Shown here piece after piece: positions 30,374 through 56,403 of a stretch of 64,000 bases of DNA. Each line of letters starts with the position of its first letter. Positions within the stretch are counted from its first letter, which is position 1. A program made the translations under genes and the position numbers. The notes under the pieces were generated by a model. That model saw nothing but the letters and a program-made list of their open reading frames with translations. It was not told the origin of the DNA and searched no databases. Source of the DNA: a virus; the IMG/VR virus record IMGVR_UViG_3300022074_000012, positions 30,872 through 94,871 of that record; one strand, written 5' to 3'.

Positions 30374-30439
30374 CAACAGTGAGGGTTTCCTCACCATTAG
30401 AAAGGACTCGAAATTATCGTAACCCTGACTACACAACTG

Positions 30440-30555
30440 CTCCCAACCAAGACCTCTGTAGGCAGTATAATACCTCGTCTTTCATATCCAGTAGTGAGGG
30501 ATTACTGGAAATAAATATCGCATCTTCCCTGATGCCCTATTTAAACGTCTTACTA
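30440..30555 (+). ncRNA. Structured psbA leader, PhotoRC-II-like motif
   Basis: Hairpins CCAGTAGT-GAGGG-ATTACTGG and GCATC-TTCCCT-GATGC have complementary loops. The position upstream of phage psbA matches PhotoRC RNAs. Confidence 0.55.
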
Positions 30556-55321: not shown

Positions 55322-55435
55322 TTTCAAATATACCGCAAAAAAAACTCCCCAAAATTTTTCGTGTGTAGGGTTTTTACGAAACAAAACCCATTATTTAGAT
55401 GCAAAATAGTCATAAATCTAAAATATTTCTAAAAA

Positions 55436-55451
55436 TGTATCATAAATTACA
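55436..55451. promoter_or_regulatory. NtcA-binding site
   Basis: TGTA-TCATAAAT-TACA = TGTA-N8-TACA. Confidence 0.6.
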
Positions 55452-55458
55452 AAACTAC

Positions 55459-55487
55459 TTGCATATATAGAGTGAATGTGTTAATAT
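55459..55487 (+). promoter_or_regulatory. Sigma70 promoter for the riboswitch locus
   Basis: TTGCAT-N17-TAATAT; predicted TSS ~55494, right at the first aptamer. Confidence 0.6.
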
Positions 55488-55495
55488 AGACACAT

Positions 55496-55728
55496 CGTTC
55501 ATCCAAATGTTAGAAGTTGCATTGCTATCTTCACTTCTCTCTCAACATCATCCGTCCCATTGGACAATGACATGTTTAGAGTGGAATCAAAACAGAGCAG
55601 AGATACTCAGCGATGGGAATCTTAACTCTGATGCTCACGAGTATCTTATAGATTACTTTTATAGCAAAGTTGAAGAAAAGAATTGTAAACCTATGATGTT
55701 TGGACGCAAGTAAGCCGACTCGGAACGG
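55496..55728 (+). ncRNA. Glutamine-riboswitch-like aptamer 1 (glnA/Downstream-peptide type) with expanded P2 loop
   Basis: CGTTC-ATCCAAA...TTTGGAC-GCAAGTAAGCCGACTC-GGAACGG. Confidence 0.65.
55507..55713 (+). CDS. 68-aa protein nested inside aptamer 1
   Basis: Hydrophobic N-terminus, two Cys; the stop TAA lies in the aptamer AGTAA. Confidence 0.6.
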   Translation: MLEVALLSSLLSQHHPSHWTMTCLEWNQNRAEILSDGNLNSDAHEYLIDYFYSKVEEKNCKPMMFGRK

Positions 55729-55731
55729 GTT

Positions 55732-55930
55732 CGTTCATCCTTATGTACCAGATTCTTCTTAGTCTAATAGCAATTGGAGCACCACTTGATTGTGATCATG
55801 CTGCTGAACTATTAGATATAGCAAGTAACAATCCTGATAAATCTGAGCAATTAGAGATAACAAGGGTTGTGGTAGCACATACTAATCCCATGTGTTTTTC
55901 AAAGGACGCAAAAGCCGACTGAAGGAACGG
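55732..55930 (+). ncRNA. Glutamine-riboswitch-like aptamer 2 with expanded P2 loop
   Basis: CGTTC-ATCCTT...AAGGAC-GCAAAAGCCGACTGAA-GGAACGG. Confidence 0.65.
55743..55922 (+). CDS. 59-aa protein nested inside aptamer 2
   Basis: MYQILLSLIAIGAPLDCDHAAELLDIASNNPDKSEQLEITRVVVAHTNPMCFSKDAKAD*; the stop TGA lies in CTGAA. Confidence 0.6.
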   Translation: MYQILLSLIAIGAPLDCDHAAELLDIASNNPDKSEQLEITRVVVAHTNPMCFSKDAKAD

Positions 55931-55964
55931 ATTTAAAACATCCAACTACTTTAGGAGCAAAACA

Positions 55965-56090
55965 ATGGCACAAGTCACTTACAGAGGAGTTCAGTACGAT
56001 ACTGAAACTCGTCTACAAGAACAAAAAATCCAACAGCCTCAACAAAAACAACTTGTTTACAGGGGTGTTGAAGTTAAAGGAGGCAAGTAA
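55965..56090 (+). CDS. DUF4278-family peptide
   Basis: MAQVTYRGVQYDT...LVYRGVEVKGGK with two YRGV motifs; AGGAG SD. Confidence 0.8.
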   Translation: MAQVTYRGVQYDTETRLQEQKIQQPQQKQLVYRGVEVKGGK

Positions 56091-56179
56091 TGTTGGTCAC
56101 TGCAGAAATTCTCGTGGCTAGCGTAGCATTTCTTGCAATAATCTACGTTGAAGCCAGACTCTTATACAGTTATAAATAA
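56090..56179 (+). CDS. 29-aa single-TM microprotein
   Basis: MLVTAEILVASVAFLAIIYVEARLLYSYK; GGAGG SD, TAATG coupling. Confidence 0.6.
   Translation: MLVTAEILVASVAFLAIIYVEARLLYSYK
56171..56178 (+). promoter_or_regulatory. T4 late promoter
   Basis: TATAAATA. Confidence 0.65.
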
Positions 56180-56201
56180 TTGTTACAAGAGGTAAAGTCA
56201 A

Positions 56202-56378
56202 ATGTTACATTTAGGGTGGGAACCACCCGAAGTCCCAGATTTCGATCCAGAAATTCATAATCCAGAAAAAGTTTTTGCTTTTCTGTGTTATCGTGGGATT
56301 CACTACGCAAAGTGGGTGTATCTAGACATTTTCAATCACCAAGATTGGAAACTTAAAAATCCAAGAGAAGAGGGTTGA
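56202..56378 (+). CDS. 58-aa protein with YRG (DUF4278-like) motif
   Basis: MLHLGWEPPEVPDFDPEIHNPEKVFAFLCYRGIHYAKW...; GAGG SD. Confidence 0.55.
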   Translation: MLHLGWEPPEVPDFDPEIHNPEKVFAFLCYRGIHYAKWVYLDIFNHQDWKLKNPREEG

Positions 56379-56403
56379 CCTTTTCTCTTTTTTTGTGTAC
56401 AAT
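56363..56403 (+). terminator. Terminator overlapping a sigma70 promoter
   Basis: AAGAGAAGAGG-GTTGA-CCTTTTCTCTT then a T run; TTGACC-N17-TACAAT. Confidence 0.65.

Follow-up and report, generated by a model that had tools for sequence, protein, structure and literature searches.

A probable composite glutamine riboswitch with protein genes in its hairpin loops in a T4-like cyanomyovirus

We analysed a 64-kb stretch of viral DNA (the window; part of the 94.9-kb IMG/VR virus record IMGVR_UViG_3300022074_000012) in which positions 55496-55930 hold two sets of glutamine-riboswitch core motifs, each split by an intact open reading frame (ORF), with a DUF4278 gene downstream. The window comes from a T4-like cyanomyovirus (PhotoRC-II RNA, thyX, phoH) whose closest relatives are Prochlorococcus and Synechococcus myoviruses. 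We consider it probable that an early phage mRNA carries at its 5' end a single composite glutamine riboswitch made up of the two sets, in which two interlocked cores carry the nested genes in the loops of their P1a hairpins, with a mechanism that we infer.

Unit 1 begins with CGTTC (55496-55500), A (55501) and TCCAAA (55502-55507), the last letter of which opens the ATG of ORF1 (55507), and is taken up again at the end of the gene by TTTGGA (55699-55704), CGCAAGTAAGCCGACTC and GGAACGG (55722-55728). Unit 2 follows the same order, with CGTTC (55732-55736), A, TCCTT (55738-55742), the ATG of ORF2 (55743), AAGGA (55902-55906), CGCAAAAGCCGACTGAA and GGAACGG (55924-55930). The stop codons are TAA (55711-55713) within AGTAA in unit 1 and TGA (55920-55922) within CTGAA in unit 2, and the P1a hairpins enclose 191 and 159 nucleotides (nt), respectively. 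AGTA is present and GAA absent in unit 1, and the reverse holds for unit 2. The pattern of the 3' half, GACGCAA-N(4-24)-GGAACG, matched twice in the window and in none of 100 shuffles. Every sequence feature listed in a preliminary description of this DNA, including the AGUA half in unit 1 and the GAA half in unit 2, was found where it had been placed. The strands of the composite RNA, with their proposed pairings, are:

55496-55500, + strand: CGUUC, 5' strand of the outer P1 (pseudoknot helix of the outer glutamine core); would pair with 55925-55929; invariant; pair probability 0.64 in the window fold
55502-55512, + strand: 5' arm of P1a(1), core UCCAAA, extendable to 11 pairs; includes the ORF1 start codon (55507-55509); would pair with 55694-55704
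55694-55704, + strand: 3' arm of P1a(1), formed by the last ORF1 codons
55705-55712, + strand: ligand-site strand CGCA (G18/C19 equivalents), then AGUA as the 5' half of the E-loop, from the match to the conserved core (PMC6698751) and the Rfam consensus
55713-55720, + strand: 5' strand of the inter-unit helix P2, AGCCGACU; would form six Watson-Crick pairs and two C.A mismatches with 55913-55920
55722-55736, + strand: inner P1, made of GGAACGG, a 3-nt linker and CGUUC, with 55723-55727 pairing with 55732-55736 (RNAalifold); putative pseudoknot helix of the circularly permuted inner core
55738-55742, + strand: 5' arm of P1a(2), UCCUU, directly 5' of the ORF2 start codon; would pair with 55902-55906
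55902-55911, + strand: 3' arm of P1a(2), AAGGA, then CGCAA, the second ligand-site strand
55913-55923, + strand: 3' strand of P2, again AGCCGACU, then GAA as the 3' half of the E-loop
55924-55930, + strand: GGAACGG, the outer P1 3' strand together with the G that takes part in the long-range C-G pair

The ligand site seen in the glutamine-II riboswitch's crystal structure is built from CGUUC, two residues of CGCA (the G and the C), GGAACG, and a next G that pairs with that C (PMC6698751), and the core nucleotides of the window correspond to these residues at the level of sequence. Compared with the glutamine-I family (glnA RNA, RF01739), the ligand strand and the long-range C-G are present, with CGCA at 55705-55708 and 55907-55910. 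Both CGUUC/GAACG strand pairs of P1 are present and invariant, their partnering being our interpretation, and a P1a hairpin stands directly after CGUUC-A with an ORF as its loop instead of a few nucleotides. The E-loop flanking P2 is found only across both units (AGUA at 55709-55712, GAA at 55921-55923). The P2 hairpin with GGAACGG in its loop, by which the glutamine-II family (Downstream-peptide, RF01704) forms an H-type pseudoknot, has no equivalent stem in the window.

Related phages carry the same element with empty loops, and it is these homologues that link it to Rfam. At the homologous locus of phage P-RSM6, unit 1 has a 4-nt loop in place of the gene, between flanks identical to those of window unit 1, while the second unit encloses a 62-codon ORF; the 49-nt empty unit reached 34.9 bits with the RF01739 model and 33.1 bits with RF01704. 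Where both units are empty, RF01739 aligned across the whole composite, treating the inner core as an insertion in the P2 loop, with 43.6 (L018), 40.3 (L058), 40.2 (L069) and 38.4 bits (L047). Empty homologues cover 35.3-43.6 bits against a gathering threshold of 35 bits, which the window itself does not reach. Single empty units scored 29-36 bits on RF01704, and in the alignment of an empty homologue to this family the outer stem pair is non-standard and three consensus positions are deleted on each side of GGAACGG. The assignment of the window cores to the glutamine riboswitches, already made in the preliminary description, is supported by these sequence matches.

A scan of viral contigs for the unit-junction pattern returned at least 120 loci. 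Among the matches listed, to which the counts of units and distinct nested products below also refer, the hairpin loop measures 6-49 nt in 115 units and 137-220 nt in 119, with none of the 234 units in between. All four combinations of empty and filled units occur, so that the survey suggested in the preliminary description finds both states side by side in related phages. An intact ORF is present in 118 of the 119 long loops. Its start lies 1-7 nt past CGTTCATCC (at +1 in 91 units) and its stop at -4 to +15 nt of GACGCAA in all but three filled units, so the arrangement first described for the window, a start codon in or at the 5' arm and a stop codon in the conserved junction, extends across the filled units. 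Both units are filled in P-SSM4, P-HM1 and P-RSM4, whose annotations list these ORFs as hypothetical proteins T4-GC 429, 430 and 541.

The arms of P1a remain complementary across the genes. The first five pairs are kept in 112 distinct filled units, and at positions 3-5 the arms are paired in 88-100% of them, against 59-90% expected with independent arms. Position 3 is paired throughout (C-G in 100 units, U-A in 12), position 4 in 90% with five pair types (59% expected) and position 5, which is usually the A of the start codon, in 88% (73% expected). Past position 5 pairing falls to chance level, and empty units behave alike. Judged from these alignments, the closing hairpin P1a is a helix that covaries across the ORF.

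The nested genes are:

55507-55713, + strand: nested gene 1, 68 amino acids (aa), PHROG 6471; T4-GC 429 in P-SSM4, P-HM1 and P-RSM4; stop UAA in the AGUA strand of the E-loop
55743-55922, + strand: nested gene 2, 59 aa, PHROG 504; T4-GC 541/430; paralogue of gene 1; stop UGA overlapping the end of P2 and the GAA strand

Both products have a hydrophobic N-terminus and two cysteines (Cys23 and Cys60 in protein 1, Cys17 and Cys51 in protein 2), and the 117 distinct nested products share this hydrophobic N-terminus and two invariant cysteines about 35 residues apart. A single blastp cluster holds 112 of the 117, and the short and long classes are homologous to each other (hhalign probability 97.5%, E 7e-12). 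Pairwise ratios of nonsynonymous to synonymous substitution rates (dN/dS) have medians of 0.17-0.55 across the nested-gene groups (0.24 in the ORF1 subgroup, 0.55 in ORF2), and codon position 3 is the most variable and position 2 the least. By these sequence measures the nested ORFs are under purifying selection, which agrees with the earlier claim that the variable hairpin encloses a protein gene. AlphaFold gave both proteins the same fold, with a predicted local distance difference test score of 86 for protein 1 and 77 for protein 2. In these confident models an N-terminal helix is followed by a helical hairpin that would have the two cysteines adjacent at its base. A fold search of the Protein Data Bank with protein 1 returned nothing below E = 3, the best hit being a generic disulfide-stabilised helical hairpin. 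Pfam gave no match for either protein, and PHROG 6471 and 504 are families of unannotated function. That the long loops are RNA expansions with ORFs open by chance or untranslated would fit the missing Shine-Dalgarno sequence at either nested start codon, yet this seems hardly credible in view of the nearly constant presence of an intact ORF, the substitution pattern, the two invariant cysteines side by side in a confident predicted fold and the PHROG matches.

Two protein-pattern scans of viral contigs each returned more than 400 stretches encoding relatives of the nested genes, the alignments used for retrieval having had both protein termini removed, which kept the RNA halves from steering it. 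Among these protein-retrieved loci, both RNA halves flank the nested gene at all 77 short-class loci with complete context and at 74 of 76 loci of the window ORF1 class (3' half and second unit at 76 of 76), that is, at 151 of the 153 loci that could be fully checked. The two exceptions, L252 and L253, belong to one lineage and have lost only the first CGUUC, keeping the ORF, the 3' half and the second unit. A pattern scan of 185,579 prokaryotic genomes gave one match, on a 1.7-kb contig of a metagenome-assembled genome, and the nested-gene family looks phage-only. Since it is essentially one homologous, apparently phage-only family with a nearly constant RNA association, the proposal that the loop acts as a slot for varied small genes finds no support.

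The pairing between units indicates how the two cores may be joined. In 177 two-unit arrays the unit 1 strand that follows AGUA can base-pair with the unit 2 strand that precedes GAA or AAA, and the two covary (AGUCG/CGACU, AUUCG/CGAAU, AGUCA/UGACU, AAUCG/CGAUU, GGACGACG/CGCCGCCC and others). There are 26 distinct strand combinations in 176 arrays, and positions 1, 2, 4 and 5 are 96-100% paired, a level reached by none of 5000 shuffles. Since AGUA invariably belongs to unit 1 and GAA to unit 2, the E-loop is complete only if this inter-unit helix forms. GGAACG and CGTTCA stand 3-5 nt apart in each of the 177 arrays, the search having allowed 1-12. RNAalifold on 17 empty-empty arrays returned nested pairing, with the first P1 strand paired to the fourth; counted on this structure, 97.4% of cells are paired and 7 pairs have changed on both sides, values that none of 500 shuffles reached. 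In the composite we propose, the outer P1 would thus be CGUUC of unit 1 with GAACG of unit 2, the inner P1 would be GAACG of unit 1 with CGUUC of unit 2 across the linker, and P2 would join the strand after AGUA to the strand before GAA. With this nested pairing and P2, the outer core would have the full type I (glnA) layout, namely P1, P1a, CGCA, AGUA, P2, GAA and GGAACGG. The inner core would be a circular permutation of the same layout with P2 common to both, and each P1a would keep its five base pairs around a 160-190 nt gene for a small two-Cys protein.

The preliminary description had seen instead two independent tandem aptamers, in which CGUUC and GAACG pair within each unit and each unit senses glutamine by itself around its own ORF, the linker hairpin being just a competitor. 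We regard this as unlikely. Each unit does have all core nucleotides, single empty units match Rfam by themselves (L004 782-830, L060 312-360, L092, L024), and the first unit of the three-unit array in L090 lacks a P2 partner. However, in the tandem arrangement the covarying inter-unit P2 would be a pseudoknot and the E-loop strands would be attached to the wrong helices, neither unit alone would have an E-loop, the best Rfam alignments cover both units, and the linker is fixed in length. The loss of the first CGUUC in L252 and L253, where GGAACGG of unit 1 and the rest are kept, likewise fits a partner for that GGAACGG in unit 2. In the interlocked fold, which we favour, the linker hairpin is the P1 of the inner core.

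Several results weigh against a composite riboswitch in the window. The Rfam glutamine families gave no match in the window at gathering threshold, and at E <= 10 only chance matches on 55400-56100. A covariance model (R1) that we built from the 17 empty-empty arrays found 55691-55787 (19 bits, E 2e-4, the central piece) and 55890-55932 (11.6 bits), and covers uninterrupted pieces only, as it cannot bridge the ORFs. The P1 strands are invariant, so covariation cannot tell which of them pair. ViennaRNA folding of 441 nt did not separate the topologies, giving -106.6 kcal/mol for the interlocked fold, a slightly cheaper -109.9 for the enforced tandem fold and -112.4 for the minimum free energy structure. 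The same window fold gives probabilities of 0.96 for P1a(1), whose 11-pair version includes the AUG, 0.085 for P1a(2) and 0.001 for P2, which has the two C.A mismatches noted above. Without ligand and tertiary contacts, helices of five pairs are weak when they have to close 160-190 nt. Because the P1 strands are invariant and the energies do not discriminate, the interlocked topology, though well supported by comparison, is not proven, and the RNA may alternate between nested and tandem pairings.

The same weakness of the long-range helices, together with the missing Rfam match, would suit aptamer halves that in filled units no longer sense anything and persist as start and stop contexts, as tail-coding sequence or as repeats that aid recombination, the genes being simply expressed. 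The 3' half indeed encodes conserved protein tails (GRK, DAND and DAKAD, the last that of ORF2), which are this sequence translated in different frames, and the promoter palindrome described below resembles the mobile promoter cassettes of T4-type phages. Nevertheless, the 3' half is read in different frames or lies past the stop, and is identical in empty units, where it is noncoding; the conservation therefore acts at the RNA level. P1a covaries across the ORF as well as in empty units, and the core strands are kept at nearly all protein-retrieved loci. We think a loss of sensing improbable and retain the composite riboswitch as the better account.

The composite is placed between a promoter and a small operon:

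55459-55487, + strand: putative sigma-70-type early promoter, by homology; TTGCAT (55459-55464), 17-nt spacer, TAATAT (55482-55487)
55930-55964, + strand: predicted expression platform; short hairpin GGAU (55930-55933)/AUCC (55940-55943), then Shine-Dalgarno AGGAG (55953-55957)
55965-56090, + strand: DUF4278 (IF17-like) gene, 41 aa; Pfam PF14105, PHROG 5049
56090-56389, + strand: rest of the operon; 29-aa hydrophobic ORF (56090-56179), 58-aa ORF (56202-56378, PHROG 6192) and intrinsic terminator
56363-56389, + strand: strong intrinsic terminator, 11-pair stem then a T run

From the position of the promoter, the transcript is predicted to start at about 55494-55496, the first aptamer strand, so that ORF1 would have a leader of some 12 nt consisting of the P1 strand. 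The -10 hexamer lies in the loop of a DNA palindrome (ATGTGT/ACACAT), and in nearly all related arrays about 17 nt separate TTGAC(T/A) from a TATAAT-like box, itself inside a palindrome, with CGTTC beginning after a further 7-9 nt. The arms of the palindrome around the -10 box vary between phages (60 related arrays listed). T4-type phages have promoter-stem-loop (mobile promoter) cassettes, and the palindromic promoter here is similar to them. The window copy escaped a simple promoter scan, as its -35 box matches at only 3 of 6 positions. We also considered the palindrome as a transcribed 5' hairpin of the RNA and dropped the idea, as the comparison puts the -10 box inside it; most of the palindrome is therefore probably untranscribed.

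DUF4278 is the canonical target of glutamine riboswitches. The ORF at 55965-56090 matched PF14105 with 25.9 bits (cut-off 25.3, E 1.3e-5), as the preliminary description had stated for the downstream gene. It has the Shine-Dalgarno AGGAG, whereas the nested start codons have none. G55930 is common to the aptamer core and the hairpin of the expression platform, and the hairpin is kept in relatives with altered sequence (GGGG/CCC(U), GGAC/GUC, GGAU/GUCC). In the type I switch, a short helix attached to P1 melts upon ligand binding (PMC6212724).

From this layout a mechanism can be proposed. The aptamer would form only when both nested genes are free of ribosomes, so that folding and translation would be mutually exclusive. 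As the stops lie in the E-loop and P2 strands and the P1a arms are the first and last codons, a ribosome terminating at either stop would unwind P2 and the next P1 strand, and the switch would open. The folded RNA would bury both start codons and the very short 5' leader, and, initiation signals being weak, the RNA would have time to fold between ribosome passages. Glutamine would stabilise P1 and the long-range C-G pair, favouring the closed state, in which the nested genes would be translated less. If the gifB leader is a guide, glutamine binding would also alter access to the strong DUF4278 ribosome site through the hairpin after P1, in either direction. Since the hairpins close around genes, nitrogen sensing and translation should compete on one RNA, and a glutamine-dependent reciprocal output of nested and downstream genes is plausible. 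More tentatively, the element may be a translation-gated hysteretic switch, in which ribosome traffic and glutamine at the two cores would partition early expression between the two-Cys proteins (low glutamine, open) and DUF4278 (high glutamine, closed), and phage riboswitches may be strongly undercounted.

The phage element combines features of both known glutamine riboswitches. With glutamine-I, as in the Synechocystis gifB/IF17 leader (PMC6212724), it has in common P1, an A followed by P1a, CGCA, the AGUA/GAA E-loop, P2, the long-range C-G and a downstream DUF4278. Unlike glutamine-I, its P2 loop would hold a second, permuted core and each P1a loop holds a gene of 59-68 codons; the E-loop and P2 would be assembled from two units, the element is predicted to start at the first bases of the transcript, and standard scans miss it. 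With glutamine-II (PMC6698751), the marine picocyanobacterial type, it shares the nucleotides of the ligand-binding pseudoknot (CGUUC, the G-C of the ls strand, GGAACGG) and the link to DUF4278, but the phage RNA has no P2 hairpin around GGAACGG, and AGUA and GAA are type I features. As in other leaders with two coupled cores for one ligand, two cores occur in one leader; here, however, they would be nested rather than side by side, with a helix in common and one core circularly permuted.

ORFs are known in the loops of structured RNAs, as in the homing-endonuclease and maturase genes of group I and II introns, and dual-function RNAs include RNAIII/hld and SgrS/SgrT. The phage element resembles them in having a protein gene inside a peripheral loop of a functional RNA fold, where translation and folding need coordination. 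It differs in that the host RNA would be a metabolite sensor of about 90 nt and not a ribozyme or small RNA. Moreover, the first and last codons of the gene would form the aptamer helices, and the nested protein is not an endonuclease.

In the literature that we searched (Ames and Breaker 2011 being outside the search), phage glutamine riboswitches are mentioned only in passing and nested ORFs are not, and a gene-in-aptamer layout that physically couples sensing to translation is not described for any riboswitch. A 2017 survey by McCown counted only two glutamine aptamers in cyanophages and found that phages rarely use riboswitches (PMC5473149). Set against that number, each of our scans gave more than 400 nested-gene stretches, and the whole element is present at 151 of the 153 loci checked, so the phage census changes; if standard scans are blind to filled aptamers, the number of riboswitches credited to phages would be much too low. 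Riboswitch aptamers are usually taken as compact non-coding domains, whereas here the sensor helices would be the first and last codons of genes. The element would give a testable way into how abundant marine phages sense the nitrogen status of the host early in infection, and it raises the prospect of further 'missing' riboswitches concealed by large insertions in variable loops.

RNA-library contigs from four studies cover the region, relatives with empty loops among them. These are assembled contigs that give neither transcript ends nor strand, and the uncovered parts upstream of 55456 are uninformative; as evidence of expression they are weak because such contigs do not show that a stretch is transcribed. 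Some contigs have joints that skip 163-199 nt, which we ruled out as splicing, since replacement letters at the joints mean that they stem from empty-loop relatives. Contigs of three studies all end at 56316-56317, inside the 58-aa ORF and about 45 nt before the terminator stem, which may be an assembly effect or divergence among relatives.

Some further observations concern the arrays of related phages and the surroundings of the element. The three-unit array of L090 (6504-6824) has an empty, a filled and an empty unit; units 2 and 3 carry complementary P2 strands (AGUCA/UGACU), and unit 1 has an AGUA-type strand with no partner. In many arrays (L009, L010, L018, L129 and others) the gene after the composite is not DUF4278 and belongs to a different family starting MNTLNLI(R/K)KQ; the switch therefore serves at least two downstream gene families. 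The sole Rfam match at gathering threshold in the window is the PhotoRC-II RNA, at 30426-30522 (61.8 bits, threshold 39). In related phages a manA RNA (184-189 bits) lies near the riboswitch operon, beside talC (L004 1239-1424, L001 327-512, L060 586-780), and none was seen near the element in the window. The 29-codon hydrophobic ORF at 56090-56179 begins at the DUF4278 stop codon, its ATG overlapping the TAA, and in P-RSM4 a similar small ORF at the homologous place starts 3 nt past the stop codon there; it is possibly a membrane micro-protein translated by coupling. Finally, in L012, L017, L048, L076, L138 and others GGAACGG and the ribosome site are separated by a further element of about 40 nt, consisting of AACGGAUCC, a small hairpin and then GAGAAGGUUAA, in which the hairpin is kept and its sequence varies.

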